NCBI GenBank assembly: GCA_030295235.1
Contig: AP026156.1
Location: forward strand, 62,001-126,000
Direction of reading: 5' to 3'
Length of the DNA stretch: 64,000 nt
Source of the DNA: Fistulifera solaris
Lineage: Eukaryota
Shown here: positions 43,352 to 52,535 of the stretch, piece by piece
Position numbering within the stretch: the first letter of the stretch is position 1
How the letters are laid out: the number at the start of each line of letters is the position of its first letter
Translations under genes and position numbers: made by a program
Notes under the pieces: model-generated
Told to the model about the DNA's origin: nothing
Databases searched by the model: none
What the model saw: only the letters and a program-made list of their open reading frames with translations

Positions 43352-46300
43352 ATGGCGTTCCATTCACCCTTGCTACTACTCGATGATGACTCCTCATCAC
43401 GATGGCTCGGAGACATCAATTCAACAACAACGAATAATAGCACCAAGGCCATTCTCCAAGACTCGGCCATTTTGAGGGGATATGGGGGTCGTTTACGGAT
43501 CCTTACTCGTTGTTGTGTTTGTTATCTTTGTTATGTTCGCCTTTCATTTCCACGACCGTATACCATTCGGAAATGGCAGGAGGAATTAAAGGTACGTTTA
43601 AGTTGCCTCATTTCTTTACAAACAATTGTAATATTCATTACTTTTTCTCGCTTCAACAGAGTCCGTTGGCACAAAATCAATTTGGATTCCTTTCGTGGAT
43701 ATGGATGCTCTTTCGATTCGAGGATGACGAATTGGCCGAACATTGTGGTCTCGATGCGGTGTGTTTTCTGCGGACACTGGCCATGGGCAAGAAATTGTGT
43801 ATGGTCGGCATGTTCAATGCTGTGTGGTTGATTCCGATTTATGCGACGGCCGAGTCGTCGCCCGAAACCGATAAAATCACGGATTGGGTCGTTCGCATTA
43901 CCGTATCGCATGTTCCGCCGGGATCGGCGCGGTTGGTGGCAACCGTCGTGGCGGCCTATGTGGCCTTTGGGTATACCATGTATTTGATTGTACAAGAGTT
44001 CGAGTGGTTTATCGGTACGAATCGAATGTGTGCACACGAACAATTGTAGTCCAATTTCTCACAGCAGCTGGACAGGGATGCGTCACAAATTCCTTCGCAA
44101 GCCGAGACCCCGCAATTACACGTAAGTTCGTTGTGAGCGGCACGCAGAGCGAACCGCTGCCGTTTGTCTCATTCGTTCTACCGCAGAGTCTACGTCAGCA
44201 ATATTCCACCCGAGATACGATCCAATCAAAAATTGGAATCGTTCTTTCGTCACTGTTTCAATGGAGATCCGGTCGTGGACGCCCGTATCCGTGTGGTCGC
44301 GAACAAATTGTCCGCTTTAGTAAACAAACGAGATCATGTGATCGCCCAGCTGGAACATGCCTTGGCGGTGGAAGACAAAACCGGAACGGCACCCACGCGC
44401 AACACGGGCCTCGTGGGAGGTATCCCCGGAGTAGGTAGCGCGGCGGGGGCGATTCCGGTTCTGGGTAGCGCCGTTGCGGGAGAGCGTGTGAATTCGATTG
44501 AATGTGAGTCGTGGTGCATGTGAAAGAATGTTTGCAAACGTTGACTCAATTGATGTATGATTGCTGCGAATCATCCAGTCTTCTCCCGTGAGCTTGCGGA
44601 ATTGAATGCGGATATCTCCAATCGGATATTGCTGGTGGAGACTATGCTGAGTGAAACTGCAGCAACGGAATCGTTGGAAGAATTCAATCCTTCGTCAAAG
44701 CGATCGCGAGGACCGTTTGATACCGAAGAGCACGGAACAGAATCGGCCGATTCAATCAATCCAGAGACACGGGCCGAAGAAAAGATGGAAAGCGATTCCC
44801 TTCCGCACACAAGTTTCGACCCACTATCTCGACCGGAGGAACCGGAGGAAGAACAATTAACAGAAAATCGATCTTACTCTCAAAAGACATCAAACAATAG
44901 TTCGCTTCATGGTACATCTGCTCACTCAGTTCCCAATGACAGTTCGAGAAGTGCCATGTCATTAGCTTCCGGCGCTACGAAAAAGGCCACAAAAGCGGTC
45001 GGTACAGTTATCGGTAATGCGAAAGGCGCTTCCAAGCTCGCCACACACGCCGTCGGATCAGCTGTAAAAATGGTTGCCGGTGCTAGGGATTATGAGCACT
45101 ACCACGGAGGCTTCGTCTCCTTCCGGACACTCAGTTTAAAGTACGCAGCATTGCAGATGCTCCACCACGGGACCCCGTCCTTCATGACTGTTTTTGAAGC
45201 TCCGGATCCTCAAGATGTGTTTTGGGCAAATGTAGGACGTGAATACAAGGAGCTTCAACTGGGGCAGTTACTAAGTCGCTCGGCTTCGGTTGCTATTTGT
45301 TTTCTTTGGACTTTCCCAATGACTATCATTGCCTCGCTCTCCACAGTGGAGGGTCTGAAAAGGCAGTTTGATATTGTCGAGGATGCAATTGAAGCATTCC
45401 CAGCATTGGAGCCCATCCTTCAGCAACTTGCTCCCTTGTTGATTGTCTTGTCAAACGTTATGTAAGTACAGGTCCTTCTTGCCGATGTCTTTTTGTAACT
45501 TGTATCTGATATCGTGATGCAGCTTGCGGCAAATATTAAAAGCTCTCTCGATGTGGGAAGGGCCCGTTTCAGGATCTGTTGTTGAGGCGTTGACTTTCAC
45601 CAAGCTCGCCACCTTTATGATCATTCAGACATTCTTTGTGACAGCTATTTCGGGATCTCTATTGGAAGAGATCAAGCAAATTGCAGAAGATCCGCTGTCC
45701 ATTGTCGACCATCTCGCTAGAACACTTCCCGCACAATCTACATTCTTCATTCAGCTTGCCTTTGTCGGTACCGTGACCGACCTTGCCTTTGAAAACATCC
45801 GTATTATTCCGCTTATACAGGCATACTTGCGGAAATTTGTGGGACCGCGCGTAACAGACAAGGAACGAAGCAGAACTTTCCTTGGCCTCCGGCCTTTGTC
45901 CGATCCCTTGTATTTCCAGTTTTCATTGAACATGTCACAGTTCTCGATTTTATACTTTATGATTGTTATGGTAAGCGTCGCGACCGCTGCCTCTGCTGGT
46001 TCCCAAAACAATTCTCTTACTGCTCTTGCTTGCAGGTTTACCAGACCATAGCACCATTGACCTGCTTTTTTTTTGTGCTTTTGTTTCATCGTGCTGCGAC
46101 CTGCTTTCCTTCATCAATTCGTTTACATATACCCTACCCTTCCCGACAGCGGCGGGAAAATATGGATCCGATTTATTCGAATCATTCAGATTTGTATGAT
46201 TGTGGCGCAGATAACATTGGTGGGACTCATGGGGCTGAAGAAAGCCGGAATTGCGACTCCTCTCATGGCTCGTAAGTGTTTCATGTGGAACGTACACCGG

Positions 46301-46607
46301 GCAATGGTTTACGTTTCTAACTTCGAAATATTTTCATTTTCGTCCCCCAGCTCTCATTATATTCACGGTCCTGTTTAACGCATACTTACGACAAGAGCAC
46401 TTCCGAGTTGCAGAATACCTTCCGACAAAAGAGTGTCTGAAAGTCGATCTCCGTAATGGTGATAACTTTGCCGTTTCGCTGGTCCAGGGTGCCTACTTGC
46501 AACCGGAGCTCCGCGAAAAGGAGTTGTTTCCTGAAAATGTCGACCATCGTCGCTTGGTCGCATTTGGCTTGAAACAGAACCAAGGGGAGTCCTCGTCGTT
46601 CGTATAA
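43352..46607 (+). CDS. CSC1: OSCA/CSC1/TMEM63 mechanosensitive channel, paralog C
   Basis: Same motifs as paralog B. Donors at 43592, 44014, 44122, 45462, 45971 and 46272; mini-exon MRHKFLRKPRPRNYT. Confidence 0.92.
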
Positions 46608-46905
46608 TACACTGGATATTCAGCTGGACGTATTTGTACTTGTTTTGTATCGGATGCAAAATTTGGAGCTCAACTCACTCAGCTTCATATCGAAGATACG
46701 CGTGAACCCTGATCCAAATGGTTCTTTTTGAAAGGGACTCACATTTTGCGAACCCCCTAATGAGAAACGTGACCTTATGTTGTTCACAAAATGTTGGTGC
46801 GGCACCACTCGCGAACGTCTTGACTCTCTACGATCGCAATTTCGCTCTTAGAAATCAATCACCCCGAGGAGCTTGAAGCAACGTTGGTTAATAGGCTTTG
46901 AAACG

Positions 46906-49900
46906 ATGGCACAGAGTATCAACGAACCAGATGCCTTTCAGCGTACTTACCGAGATGCTTCTGTTCTCCGTGACATGGCAACTATTTACGGATCGTTGCT
47001 TGTCGTTGCATTCTTTTGTTCTGCATTGTGCGCATTTCGTTTCCACACCCATACACGATTCGTCGATGGACGGACAATGAAGACCTTAAGGTATGCCTTT
47101 TTTGGTCGTGACTTCTTTTTGCCTGCAATAGGTACTCGCACCGTACTTACTTGATGCTTTATTCCGCGCGAAGAATTCTCTTGCGGAAAATCAGTTTGGG
47201 CGCTTTTCCTGGATTTGGATGCTGTTTACGTTTAGTGATGACGAAATAGCAGAAGCGTGTGGCCTTGATGCTCTGTGCTTTCTCAGGACGCTTTGGATGG
47301 GAAAGAAAGTCTGCCTTTTGGGAATGTTGAACTCTCTATGGTTGATTCCTGTTTATGCAACATCCGAATCTTCTCCGGAGACGGACAAGGTCACAGACTG
47401 GGTCGTCCGTATCACAGTGTCTCATGTTTCTCCCGGATCTCCACGACTTATAGCTACCGTATTGTCTGCTTATATCTGTTTTGGATACATAATGTATTTA
47501 ATTGTGCAAGAATTTGAGTGGTTCACAGGTAAGAGTGATGAAACAACGGGGAGATTGAATTGAGACGATAAGTTGGCTAGCGAGCAAAGGGTGAGCGTCT
47601 TACCACATTTGCGTTTCTTTTTTTTTCAGCTATGCGTCACAAATTTCTTCGAAAACCGAGGCCGTCTAGCTACACGTGAGTTGGTTGGCTATGTATGAAG
47701 CAAGCCTTTTCATGTATCCGCTCACTTGTTGTTGTTCCTTCCATCTTGTCTCTCATAACAGGGTATACGTTAGCAACATCCCAGCAGAACTACGATCTAA
47801 CGACAAACTCGAAGAATTTTTCGGTCACTGCTTTAGTGGGAATCCAGTTGTTGATGTGAAAGTTCGAGTAATTGCTAATAAGCTATCTGATCTTGTGACA
47901 AAACGTGCGCAAACGGTAATAGCATTGGAAAATGCGCTAGCAATCAAGGAATCAAGCGGAAGTTCACCTACACGTACAACCGGTTCAATTGGTAATATTC
48001 CTGGAGTCGGAACTGCTGTAGCAGCTATCCCTATGGTTGGTAATGCGATTGTGGGTGAGCGACTGGACGCAATTGAAGGTAAACTTACTTTATTGTTACG
48101 CCAGCTCGACTTTTGATGTTAAAACTGACTCGTTGGTTGCATAGTCCTATCGCACGAGCTTGGTTGTCTCAACGCTGAAATTTCACATCGTATTTCTACA
48201 ATGGAGAGCATCATCTTTCGGCACGCACCGAGAGAATTCTTATCACAACCTATTTCATCGACGAGGAGCGGTCAGGGAGAATTTGAGGGCTACCGAGTCT
48301 GACAAATTGCTTTCCCAACAAAACGGAAGATCACCGGATCGCCTTTATTCTGAAGAGACAACGGGTGGAGACGTGCTTTCTCATACATCAGGGCACTCAA
48401 TGCAACCCGATGGACCGGAGAGACCTAAGGCGTTAGGCGTTTCCAATAAAGCCGCTAGCGCTGTTGGATGCGTAATTGAAAGCGCGAAAGGTGCATCTGA
48501 ACTAGCCAGCCATGCTGTTAGATCAGCTGGAAATATGATAGGAGTAGTAGCCGCAGGTCGCGATGGCGAGTACTACAATGGCGGGTTTGTGTCCTTTAGG
48601 ACGCTAAGTTTGAAGTATGCCGCATTGCAGATGCTCCACCACGATATTCCTTTCGTAATGTCGGTCTCTGAGGCTCCTGGCCCTCAAGACGTGTTTTGGA
48701 CAAACGTTGGACGCGAACATGAAGACCTTCAACTTGGGAGACTCTTTAGCCGCACAGCTTCTGTTGCTATTTGCTTTCTTTGGACAATTCCAATCGCATT
48801 CATTGCGTCGCTATCTAGTGTGGAGTCCTTGAAAAGGCAATTCGAATTTGTTGAGAAAGCAATTGACGAATTTCCAGCTTTGGAACCCATTCTTCAGCAG
48901 CTGGCTCCGCTACTTCTTCTTCTGTCAAACGTTATGTAAGTTGATAGTCGATCTTCGATCCTATGTCGATCCTGTGCCTGACCCCTTCTGTAGTCTTCGA
49001 CAGATTTTACGCGCACTTTCAATGTGGGAGGGACCTGTATCGGGTTCCATAGTCGAGGCATCAACGTTTACCAAGCTGGCCGCATTTCTGATAATTCAAA
49101 CCTTTTTCGTGTCTGCCATCTCCGGATCTCTGTTTAAAGAAATTAAGAAAATAATTGAAGATCCGTTGTCGACCATTGATCTTCTCGCCAACAGTCTTCC
49201 TGCACAATCCACATTCTTTATTCAGCTCGCCTTCGTCAGCACAGCAACTGGTCTCGTTTTCGAAACTCTGCGCATTGTTCCGCTGATACAAGCGTATCTG
49301 CGAAAGCTCTTGGGGCCACGTTCAACTGAAAAGCAGCGCCAGAAACCATTTCTTGGTCTTCGTCCTCTGTCGAATCCATCGCATTTTCAATATTCCTTGA
49401 ATGTGGCTCAATTCTCTATCTTGAACTTTATGATTGTGATGGTGAGTTTCATGATCAAATCTCTTTGAAGATGCCTAATCGGAAACATAACAATCTTACC
49501 ATTCTATCTCGAATATACGCAGGTGTACCAGGTAATAGCACCGTTAACATGCTTCTTCCTGTGCTTCTGTTTCATTCTATTGCGACCGGCCTTTCTGCAT
49601 CAGTTTATGTACATCTATCCTTCGCTCCCAGACAGCGGCGGAAAGATTTGGATCCGTTTTATTCGGATTATCCAGATTTGTATGATAGTGGCGCAACTCA
49701 CATTGGTGGGGCTCATGGGATTGAAAAAAGCCGGAATTGCGACACCACTCTTGGCTCGTAAGTGTTGTTTAAAACATACACACCGCAATGGTCTCCCCTT
49801 TCTAACGTTGGATTATTTGTCTATCGCTTGCAGCTCTCCTCATAATCACGATCTTGTTCAACGCATACTTACGGCAAGAGCATTTTCGAGTTGCCGAGTA

Positions 49901-50232: not shown

Positions 50233-51456
50233 TTATTGCGATGATTCCAAACGCAAATATTCTTGCAATTCCGCCACATCGTCCGCACTTCCCATGAAAC
50301 ACGGATACTTTTGATGCACTCGCTCGGGTGTTATATCCAGCAGCGACTGATCCGCATCCCCCAAAGCCCGACCTCCTGCTTTCTCGACAACGTAGGCCAT
50401 GGGCGCCGACTTGTATAAGAGTTGCAAATTCCCATTCGGGTGATCTTGATTGTCACGGGGATAACAAAAGATACCTCCGTACAACAAAGTGCGATGAATG
50501 TCACCCACCATGCTACCGACATAGCGATGTGCGTAGCGCTGTCCCGTTTGACCACGTCCCGTTTTGATGGTTTGTATGTATTGTCGAAAGGCAGGATCCC
50601 ATCCTTCACTGTTCCCTTCATTGCAACTGTACACATTGCCGCGCGTCGGAACTGTCAAATCCGGATGCGTCAATACAAATTCTTTCGTTTGTGGATCTAG
50701 CGTAAATCCCTGTACCGAATTTCCTATAGCCACGACCATGACGGTCGCCGAAGAATACAAACAATAACCCGCGGCCCGCATGTTTCGCGCGGGTTGTAAG
50801 ACGGCTTGAATGAGTGCTTCTTCTTCGTCACTGGGTTCGGATTGTTCAAAGACACCAAAGACCGTTCCGGTACAAATCGAAGCATCCGCATTCCCACTCC
50901 CATCCAACGGATCCAAGACTGCGACAAACGATCGTTTCTCTTGTTGCAACGACTTGGCAATGAGGACACCGGGTTGATGCGTGGCCGGCGATTCCGAATC
51001 CAACCGCACGGCCGGTTCGACGACTTGACATTTGCCCGTATATTTGAGGGCATTTTTCAAGACCAAGGTCGACAATAGATCCAATCGTTTCATGCTGTAA
51101 TAACGTCCATCGCTATAACTGTCTTTGTTGGAAGTCGGATTCACCAATCCGGCGCGATGCACCAAGGTGGAAATCGTTTTGCAGGCCATTTGGACGGCCA
51201 AATACAAGGACTCGAGGTCCCGCAATTCGGGCTCCTCTTGGACTTTGGCCTGCAAAAATCGATTTAGTGTGACCGGTGGGAGTGTCTGTATTTTTTGTGT
51301 TTGGAGGGGTGTTTCAAACAAGGAATAGTAACGGGCATCGACCGTGTCGGCGGCGAGACATGTGTGTGATAATCGTTGCCGTTGTTGCGGGATCCAGGCC
51401 TCGCTTGTGCAGCAGGCAAGGAAGAAGACGAAGCAGCTGTTGATTGTTGAATGCAT
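50233..51456 (-). CDS. fbp: Plastid-targeted class I fructose-1,6-bisphosphatase-like protein with a divergent active site
   Basis: Intact 407-aa ORF: DPLDGSGN, AAGYCLYSSAT, GFTLDP, YSCNEGN, RYVGSMVGDIHRTLLYGGIFCYP, PMAYVVEKAGG. The leader ...CCTSEA-WIP fits a signal peptide with an aromatic +1 residue. Confidence 0.92.
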   Translation of the reverse strand: MHSTINSCFVFFLACCTSEAWIPQQRQRLSHTCLAADTVDARYYSLFETPLQTQKIQTLPPVTLNRFLQAKVQEEPELRDLESLYLAVQMACKTISTLVHRAGLVNPTSNKDSYSDGRYYSMKRLDLLSTLVLKNALKYTGKCQVVEPAVRLDSESPATHQPGVLIAKSLQQEKRSFVAVLDPLDGSGNADASICTGTVFGVFEQSEPSDEEEALIQAVLQPARNMRAAGYCLYSSATVMVVAIGNSVQGFTLDPQTKEFVLTHPDLTVPTRGNVYSCNEGNSEGWDPAFRQYIQTIKTGRGQTGQRYAHRYVGSMVGDIHRTLLYGGIFCYPRDNQDHPNGNLQLLYKSAPMAYVVEKAGGRALGDADQSLLDITPERVHQKYPCFMGSADDVAELQEYLRLESSQ

Positions 51457-52535
51457 GTTAAGAAAAGAGAAACTGGTAATGCAAAAGGACTGAGAGATCT
51501 TTGCAATGCAACAAAACTGAGGCGACGACGAGAGTGTCGTTTGCGTTTCTTGCTTGACACTCTTACGTTTCGTTGCATACTATGGTAGTACTGACAGGCT
51601 ATCGTACCGTTATTAGATTTACTAACGACATAATCTGCTTTCCCTTGAACAATGAATAGCGGACGATATTCATTCCATTTTCGGTCCTTCATTTTGAAAC
51701 TATCTCAAATAATCTAGTTGTGTGTAGCAAAGGAAAATATTGGCGAGGTGACAATCTGACTCCTCGAACAACCTTGCGAACAACTACTCCGAAATACTGA
51801 CTCATGACTGAAATGCAATCGTGGTCTCCTAAAACCAACACTTTGGGCTTATAGTAAATACGGACAACAACGTTTCGCCGGCTTTTCAACCTACAAATAT
51901 CCAAGCGTGTAAGGCAAAACGCGGTTAAAGACTATTTTATCGCAACAATGACAGATGCAGCGCAAGGATTTGGTAACGTACGAATTGTAGGTAATAATAT
52001 TGTCGCTCGAGAGAATATCGAAATACGGACAACACATTGATCCATAGTAAAATACGGGTGGCAACGCTCAAGCATTTCGACGTAAAATATCAATGCGTGT
52101 GAAGCTACGAAAGACTATTTCATCCGCATTTCAGGAAAATTAGGAATAAATATGATACACTCTAGTGCTTTTTCAATAAGTTCAAAAAAAATTTCATTGA
52201 AGTAACGACAAAGAGCTCACTAAAAACGGCGAACGAACGAATTGTCGTTAACATTGTCGCCCGCAATGAAAATTAAATCATGACTGAATTACAGTCGTGG
52301 TCACACTTTGGGCTATAGTAAATGTGGTTTTCCTTACTTTGAGGCCGACGGAATTTCTGAGGCTCACAGTAACCATTGTACCTGTAGAATGTAGAATGCA
52401 CCGTTCGCGGCAAAACGCATTGCGATGCGATGCGAAAGATCTTCGAAACGACCCATGACACGCAAAGGAAATCATCGTGTGGCTTGAATCGCCCTTCTCA
52501 TTATTTTCTATTAATTCTTTCTACTTTGAGGCGTC

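Follow-up and report, generated by a model that had tools for sequence, protein, structure and literature searches.

In class I fructose-1,6-bisphosphatases (FBPases), metal 1 is held by E97, D118, D121 and E280, metal 2 by E97, D118 and the carbonyl of L120, and metal 3 by D68. Water is activated by E98 and D74, the 1-phosphate is bound by R276, and the 6-phosphate and the sugar are held by K274, N212, Y215, Y244 and Y264, together with R243 from the adjoining subunit. In the chloroplast enzyme of pea, the cysteines targeted by thioredoxin are C153, C173 and C178. We analysed a gene of Fistulifera solaris that lies in a 64,000-nucleotide stretch of contig AP026156.1 (positions 62,001 to 126,000 of the forward strand; hereafter the window) and encodes an FBPase-like protein, P0001. 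Judged by alignment, P0001 has lost K274 and the half of the active site that serves the metals and the 1-phosphate (E97, E98, D68, R276 and E280), and the remainder of the 6-phosphate and sugar half persists with the cross-subunit Arg243. FBPase residues are numbered here as in the pig-kidney enzyme. The numbering was checked by aligning a database FBPase to chain 4he0 of human FBP2, in which residue indices coincide with those of the pig enzyme, with K274, R276 and E280 in GKLRLLYE, N212 in NEGY, R243 and Y244 in RYVGSM, Y264 in YP, D118 and D121 in DPLDG, E97 and E98 in SEE, and D68 and D74 in GDxxKKLD as anchors.

The closest described relatives of P0001 are the chloroplast enzymes of the cpFBPase1 type (Physcomitrella 5iz1, pea 1d9q/1dbz and spinach 1spi), which match it best with E-values of 1e-71 to 1e-75, 37-39% identity, a template modelling (TM) score of ∼0.89 and the same two Pfam domains. 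Like cpFBPase1, P0001 has DPLDG and the 6-phosphate residues of NEGN, RYxGS and YP, and is expected to be located in the plastid. Unlike cpFBPase1, it is devoid of SEE, D68, K274, R276 and E280, its regulatory insertion is short and free of Cys (FEQSEPSDEEEALIQAVLQP), and it has a DGR[YF]Y insertion, an HQPG loop and an N-terminal DxxYY.

Four plastid FBPases of diatoms, FBPC1-FBPC4, are all treated as isoenzymes in the available sections of Kroth et al. 2008 (PMC2173943). Like these, P0001 appears to be one of the nuclear-encoded diatom FBPase paralogs with bipartite plastid leaders; unlike the isoenzymes as described in those sections, its clade has a rebuilt catalytic site. A redox-insensitive plastid FBPase of diatoms and other algae, cpFBPase2, was described by Li et al. 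2019 (PMC7195585, available portion). P0001 resembles cpFBPase2 as a plastid FBPase paralog apparently devoid of redox regulation, and cpFBPase2 is presented there as an enzyme; the available portion of this classification of plastid FBPases does not mention catalytic or active-site residues. The FBPase paralog TgFBP1 of Toxoplasma shows little demonstrable in vivo activity and cannot replace the active isoform (PMC7729029, in the accessible text). Unlike P0001, with its predicted plastid location, TgFBP1 is cytosolic; it is presented as an isoenzyme with measurable kinetics, and the same text states no loss of catalytic residues.

Active-site residues, leader and predicted fold

The coding sequence occupies 50233..51456 of the window on the - strand, and is a single, intronless frame that runs from an ATG through 407 codons to the stop. 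No read-derived joints were present inside the gene in the alignments of sequencing runs X1-X3. Pfam FBPase (PF00316) matched residues 63-265 (3.4e-33) and FBPase_C (PF18913) residues 269-401 (1.1e-41), with scores of 115 and 142 bits, respectively, both exceeding the cut-offs. The best match in the PDB is the Physcomitrella chloroplast FBPase 5iz1 (1.3e-74), followed by the pea chloroplast FBPase 1dbz/1d9q (∼2-3.5e-73) and the pig and human liver enzymes (∼1e-65). The Pfam and PDB matches and the modelled fold place P0001 in class I FBPases. The features of the gene, all on the - strand, are as follows.

50233..51456, -: whole coding sequence of the FBPase-like protein P0001 (open frame, Pfam and PDB matches)
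51394..51456, -: hydrophobic, signal-peptide-like N-terminus, residues 1-21, ending SEA|W (Kyte-Doolittle hydrophobicity and ortholog counts)
51325..51339, -: DARYY, residues 40-44, DxxY[YF] motif (counts in clade and canonical rows)
50662..51270, -: N-terminal FBPase domain, residues 63-265 (Pfam)
51079..51111, -: DGRYYSMKRLD, residues 116-126, rebuilt catalytic loop (alignments and model)
50965..51030, -: CQVVEPAVRLDSESPATHQPGV, residues 143-164, strand B1 and the lengthened loop replacing SEE (alignments and model)
50890..50913, -: DPLDGSGN, residues 182-189 (alignment)
50254..50652, -: FBPase_C domain, residues 269-401 (Pfam)
50611..50631, -: YSCNEGN, residues 276-282, N212 retained, clade-specific C278 (alignment)
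50509..50526, -: RYVGSM, residues 311-316, R243, Y244 and M248 retained (alignment)
50410..50433, -: GNLQLLYK, residues 342-349, K274N, R276Q and E280K (codons GGG AAT TTG CAA CTC TTA TAC AAG)

The canonical GKLRLLYE reads GNLQLLYK in P0001, which amounts to K274N (N343), R276Q (Q345) and E280K (K349). This change had been noticed in a preliminary description made from the letters of the window alone, and both the codons and the alignment bear it out; the position given there, about 50418-50441, was 8 nucleotides off. Thus, the metal ligand E280 is replaced by K349 (K in 116 of the 120 best database matches), and the residues contacting the 1-phosphate (R276) and the substrate (K274) are replaced by Q345 and N343. 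The SEE motif is also missing. A profile-profile alignment (hhalign), comparing 38 clade members with 43 canonical FBPases, placed S96, E97 and E98 on P148, A149 and V150. In the alternative register, obtained with MAFFT, E97 falls on E155, a position with Glu in 94 and Asp in 10 of the 121 clade rows, and that of E98 holds Q, S or G or is gapped. Neither register gives a conserved acidic E98, and P0001 is without the SEE motif, whose E97/E98 pair supplies the metal ligands and base of a competent class I enzyme. In the profile-profile alignment, D68, the dynamic-loop residue that holds metal 3, maps to a variable position (D112), just after which eight residues, SYSDGRYY, are inserted; in MAFFT, it maps to Y120. 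The loop had been called degenerate; D68 indeed has no conserved equivalent and the insertion is present, with D74 kept.

The other half of the site is conserved in P0001: N212 corresponds to N279, R243/Y244 to R311/Y312, M248 to M316, Y264 to Y332, D118/D121 to D182/D185 and D74 to D126. L120, G122 and S123 of the DPLDG block are also retained, and S124 is replaced by glycine (G188, fixed in the clade). D182, P183, D185, G186, S187 and D126 are each present in 121/121 clade rows, as are N279, R311 and Y312, and Y332 is present in 119/121. Hence, DPLDG, YSCNEGN, RYVGSM and Y264 are intact by alignment, as the preliminary description had it. Its suggestion of a substrate-binding protein fares less uniformly: the 6-phosphate and sugar half is kept, and the substrate contacts K274 and R276 themselves are lost.

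We also observed residues that are fixed in the clade and are variable or different in canonical FBPases. D116, G117, R118, Y120 and S121 (P0001 numbering, as in the rest of this paragraph) lie in an insertion before helix H3 with the clade consensus DGR[YF]Y, and the rebuilt loop is closed by D126, the equivalent of D74. P148 is conserved and H160-Q161-P162-G163 (HQPG) is near-invariant. Among the 121 clade rows, H160 is found in 120, Q161 in 119, R118 in 118, S121 in 121, C195 in 121 and C278 in 117. The clade-specific conserved cysteines are C195, C232, C278 and C386; a fifth conserved cysteine, C92, is common to part of the canonical set. The segment that corresponds to the chloroplast redox insertion (residues 203-222) is shorter and Cys-free in the alignment to pea 1d9q/1dbz, so that P0001 has no insertion with thioredoxin-target cysteines of the kind that defines the redox-regulated cpFBPase1.

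Upstream of the domain, among rows with at least 45 residues there, a DxxY[YF] motif was present in 71/81 rows of the variant clade and 0/15 canonical rows; conservation of D40 and Y43 is 90% or higher (alignment A2). The motif sits 18-44 residues before the FBPase domain, and S/T-x-x-E-x-P often follows it. It could be a docking motif.

The N-terminus of P0001 is hydrophobic (Kyte-Doolittle mean of 2.16 in the best 12-residue window), and a hydrophobic N-terminal stretch was found in 73/81 full-length clade rows. Just past this stretch, [AGSC][WF] occurs in 65/73 orthologs; shuffled tails reached 33 on average and 42 at most. The bipartite plastid presequence of diatoms (ASAFAP type) consists of a signal peptide with an aromatic residue at +1 of the cleavage site. 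The leader is therefore apparently of the bipartite plastid type and a plastid location is predicted. The unbroken frame and leader noted in the preliminary description are upheld by the 407-residue frame, and the hydrophobicity and the ortholog motif counts suggest that the leader is plastid-type.

The structure of P0001 was predicted with AlphaFold2 from a 102-sequence alignment, with a mean predicted local distance difference test score (pLDDT) of 88, a predicted TM score (pTM) of 0.85 and core blocks at 91-99; confidence was low only in residues 1-60 (the leader), 100-120 and ∼150-160. Foldseek returned pea and pig FBPases as the best matches of the model (TM 0.89-0.91 normalised to target), followed by human, Leishmania and moss FBPases, with TM of 0.86-0.91 overall. 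The model confidently predicts an intact FBPase fold, an outcome in line with the modelling that the preliminary description had suggested. In the model, a helix begins at residue 117, and strand B1 (143-146) runs straight into E-P-A, which agrees with the profile register lacking SEE.

Conservation, phylogeny and selection in the diatom clade

We searched a collection of 5.8 billion proteins and considered the best 120 matches, which are 48-92% identical to P0001. Among them, 116 carry G-[NHQ]-[LI]-Q-L-[LV]-Y-K, 109 of these being exactly GNLQLLYK, and none carries the canonical motif. The remaining four have neither motif; they are short or partial and look like fragments. In a wider alignment of 233 proteins of 300-620 residues (out of 269), positions 274/276/280 read N/Q/K in 121 rows, K/H/R-R-E in 89 and otherwise in 23. 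Six of these 23 rows fall inside the clade. Three of them (P0139, P0126 and P0133) become unrelated sequence past about residue 318-335, a pattern common where gene ends are mis-called. P0129 shows a gap of 4 residues, and P0028 (H) and P0130 (Q) are true variants at position 274 only.

The same motifs recur in P0271 (99.8% identical), P0270 (96.3%) and P0002/P0273 (94%). As these are independent close records, the motifs are not errors of this assembly, and the view that they are substitutions rather than indel errors is sustained. P0270 is the F. solaris protein GAX21788.1 and probably the homeolog of P0001 in this allodiploid species. Both Fistulifera-type copies are intact and differ mostly in the leader and loops, with every motif retained. 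Residue 246 (50719-50721, -), which is outside the motifs, is N (AAT) in P0001 and D in P0271, P0270 and all close relatives; the discrepancy is one between strains or stems from a single-base error.

For a quick maximum-likelihood tree, we used 121 rows, namely 25 of the 121 variant rows, picked for names and diversity, together with every other full-length row (96 in total). Variant rows were monophyletic (SH-aLRT 95, an approximate likelihood-ratio support) and were joined by a sister, P0128, with a support of 100 and a stem of 0.5 substitutions per site. The nearest canonical clades are eukaryotic plastid-type FBPases. From the tree, the variant active site is best taken to have arisen once. 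The best 120 matches, the alignment and the tree together agree with the earlier expectation that the substitutions define a conserved, monophyletic clade of diatom proteins.

The sister P0128, whose cluster consists of an MMETSP transcript and metagenome copies, is degenerate in another manner: it has D74M, D118N and R276H and no SEE, and retains K274 and E280. This suggests that catalysis was already lost, or was being lost, on the stem common to P0128 and the clade.

Members with names come from both centric and pennate diatoms: Fistulifera, Fragilaria, Epithemia, Pseudo-nitzschia, Entomoneis, Odontella aurita, Ditylum and Cyclotella cryptica. Thalassiosira pseudonana B8C3D2 also belongs to the clade. 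The sole non-diatom name is on an Alexandrium-labelled record that shares its 90% cluster with the T. pseudonana protein. None of the best 120 matches is named Phaeodactylum; this model diatom may lack the gene, or its record may be nameless, and its non-appearance could account for the clade having escaped notice. In the ESM Atlas, we found only clusters named FBPase or SBPase (sedoheptulose-1,7-bisphosphatase), commonest in Bacillariophyta and Haptophyta.

For estimates of selection, the ratio of nonsynonymous to synonymous substitution rates (dN/dS) was calculated by the Nei-Gojobori method with ten metagenome contigs bearing orthologs; synonymous sites were saturated in 40 of the 55 pairs, and the close pairs were used. 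Among the contigs L003, L004, L006 and L008, dN/dS was 0.036-0.046 in five of the six pairs, which accords with the purifying selection anticipated for the clade. The sixth pair, L003-L004, had a dN/dS of 0.16, and its alignment takes in the leader. These sequence-based ratios argue for strong purifying selection on the clade. Within it, 123/316 core positions are at least 95% conserved. We also compared column entropies across 66 clade members of <80% identity, with the three clade-defining positions omitted. The mean was 0.16 bits for 16 positions of the old active site and 1.15 bits for the rest of the core (Mann-Whitney p = 1.7e-5); therefore, the pocket is still constrained. P0001 thus combines lost catalytic residues with purifying selection, as would be expected of a pseudoenzyme.

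Altered catalytic positions were also seen outside the diatom clade. P0160 (337 residues, from a single Logan contig) is an animal-type FBPase (∼1e-105 to human FBP2) that keeps GKLRLLYE and DPLDG, reads V-PGE where SEE would stand and carries QNLEE instead of KKLD; it may be a further, independent degenerate FBPase. P0259 (D74N, R243D, R276G and E280K), P0248 (D118C, D121N and E280Q), P0247, P0269, P0194 and P0202 also have altered catalytic positions. Catalytic residues may have been lost several times in the FBPase family, or some of these cases may be alignment errors.

Possible functions of the clade and their weighing

Plastids contain pseudoenzymes that regulate carbohydrate enzymes, such as the beta-amylase-like BAM4 and BAM9 of Arabidopsis. 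These proteins, of an unrelated family, could serve as a model for P0001: catalytic residues are lost, the protein is kept by selection and it acts through binding. Our preferred explanation, for and against which we find the case evenly balanced, is that P0001 is a plastid sugar-phosphate-binding protein that is no longer a Mg-dependent phosphatase of fructose 1,6-bisphosphate (FBP). P0001 would then represent a diatom-wide paralog clade that derives from a plastid-type class I FBPase and is imported into the plastid. The metal, 1-phosphate and water half of the site has been replaced by P148 with the HQPG loop, the DGR[YF]Y insertion and N343/Q345/K349. Lys349 could plausibly pair with D182/D185 at the former metal 1 site, in keeping with the preliminary suggestion that this Lys could stand in for the metal charge. 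We infer that hydrolysis of FBP by the Mg-dependent mechanism has been lost, and that a phosphorylated sugar, either fructose 6-phosphate (F6P)-like or FBP without metals, would still be bound in the old pocket. FBPase-like oligomers would still be formed. R243, known to reach into the site of the adjoining subunit, is kept in 121/121 clade rows. P0001 might in this way act by non-catalytic binding, serving as sensor or regulator or associating with active plastid FBPases.

Several points weigh against this explanation. D118, D121, D74 and G122-S123 are invariant and residue 155 is acidic in 104/121 rows, and therefore one metal could still bind. The fixed N/Q/K, together with R118, S121, H160, Q161, C195 and C278 of P0001, resemble a new catalytic or ligand site. 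The literature searched yielded no activity or binding assay of clade proteins, and the canonical plastid FBPase of the same species, a potential partner, is not within the window. From the alignments, the fixed N/Q/K and the new invariant residues are as compatible with a newly formed ligand site or a novel chemistry as with a 'dead' enzyme.

The chief rival is that of a neofunctionalised enzyme, in which the rebuilt pocket would convert a phosphorylated sugar, or some other substrate, in a different reaction, possibly in a metal-independent or one-metal manner, with the 6-phosphate anchor kept. The strict fixation of N/Q/K, H160, Q161, R118, S121, C195 and C278, the retention of D118, D121 and D74, a pocket that exceeds the rest of the protein in conservation and a dN/dS of ∼0.04 are all in its favour. 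However, regulatory ligand sites may be conserved like catalytic ones, no such activity has been reported in the literature searched, and we know of no member of the FBPase/IMPase superfamily that works without a Glu/Asp equivalent to E280. We regard this rival as possible but on the unlikely side. A bolder proposal is that K349 and the new Arg/His-bearing loop replace the metal cluster, making P0001 either a metal-free sugar-phosphate enzyme of the Calvin cycle or an F6P/FBP sensor that joins active FBPases, donates Arg243 across the dimer and sets the flux of the Calvin cycle; this we offer as speculation that would more probably than the preceding rival turn out to be wrong.

P0001 might also still be a phosphatase: an FBPase of weak or unusual activity, or else the plastid SBPase that is 'missing' in diatoms. 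DPLDG, D74 and the 6-phosphate residues are intact, as this would require, but E98, E280, R276, K274 and D68 are all replaced, and mutants of pig FBPase at these residues have a kcat that is down by orders of magnitude. The 89 K/H/R-R-E rows were selected by E280, and a few of the 23 other rows, outside the clade, are likewise without E280. The gap of a plastid SBPase in diatoms is noted by Kroth et al. in the sections available (PMC2173943), in favour of this possibility; on the other side, the residues lost here are retained in canonical SBPases, and the SBPase-like protein B8BY12 of T. pseudonana keeps SEE, DPLDGSS and KLRLLYE (PMC6683858, searched part of the supplement). We therefore consider a remaining phosphatase improbable. 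Least probable by far, with hardly any chance in our estimate, is a decaying pseudogene or a product of assembly or sequencing errors. The preliminary description had claimed indel errors elsewhere in the window, and N246 departs from the D of all close relatives, which would suit such errors; however, the frame is open, the motifs are the same in four independent close records and in 116/120 best matches, dN/dS is ∼0.04, and the X1 contigs at both gene ends are free of deviating letters. For practical purposes, the open frame, the conservation, the dN/dS and the X1 reads exclude it.

In the literature searched, there is no description of this clade or of a diatom FBPase with altered catalytic residues. 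Such residues are unmentioned in the available portions of PMC2173943, PMC7195585, PMC7378808, PMC6477932, PMC5462543 and 10.1101/2023.10.26.564148. The identifiers B8C3D2, XP_002290348 and EED92100 are absent from the main texts that were searchable, and B8C3D2 is not in the searched part of the PMC6683858 supplement. We conclude that these proteins form an FBPase-derived family with a rebuilt active site, and that P0001 is probably not a normal FBPase. In the databases, the clade proteins are labelled 'fructose-1,6-bisphosphatase I' or 'fructose-bisphosphatase'; therefore, errors may arise where metabolic models or transcriptome studies include them among the FBPase isoenzymes.

Diatoms are credited with ∼20% of global carbon fixation (PMC2173943, available sections), and their Calvin cycle is regulated otherwise than that of plants. 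According to the available sections of PMC2173943 and PMC7378808, thioredoxin control is directly evidenced for FBPase only, and diatom phosphoribulokinase (PRK) and SBPase are free of redox regulation. A paralog retained in centric and pennate diatoms, in which the canonical residues have been given up and yet the pocket is constrained, suggests that plastid carbon metabolism includes a regulatory or enzymatic component that has gone unrecognised. If P0001 were a sensor, it could set Calvin-cycle flux in a lineage with little or none of the usual redox control over PRK and SBPase.

Reads and neighbouring genes

Run X1 covers all 30 bins evenly and resembles DNA. The contigs of run X2 skip GT..AG intervals in neighbouring genes (47526-47760 and 49757-49834). 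Over P0001, X2 contigs span 50234-50603 with 19 differing letters and 50729-51033 with 20. They are ∼94-95% identical to the window, and so are probably from the other gene copy. The read differences listed are 40 of 228, and this listing alone cannot exclude variant codons. As the type of run X2 is a guess, these contigs are a weak hint of transcription of P0001. That orthologs are expressed is suggested by 'mmetsp' records with 'Transcript_' names, MMETSP being a transcriptome project.

The neighbours of P0001 are aconitase B, PsbU, pieces of an RSN1/OSCA-type channel and an alpha/beta hydrolase, and are unrelated to FBPase function. The RSN1_7TM/PHM7 (OSCA-type channel) matches at 44557-48939 (+) are split across three open reading frames, and the first of the intervals skipped by X2 lies within this region; the split is due either to a multi-exon gene or to indel errors. 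Directly upstream of P0001, the stretch 51800-52340 has an X1 depth of 164-287 compared to ∼15-55 around it, with several alternative X1 joints (51824-52032) and loose ends, and is probably a repeated or variable intergenic element.

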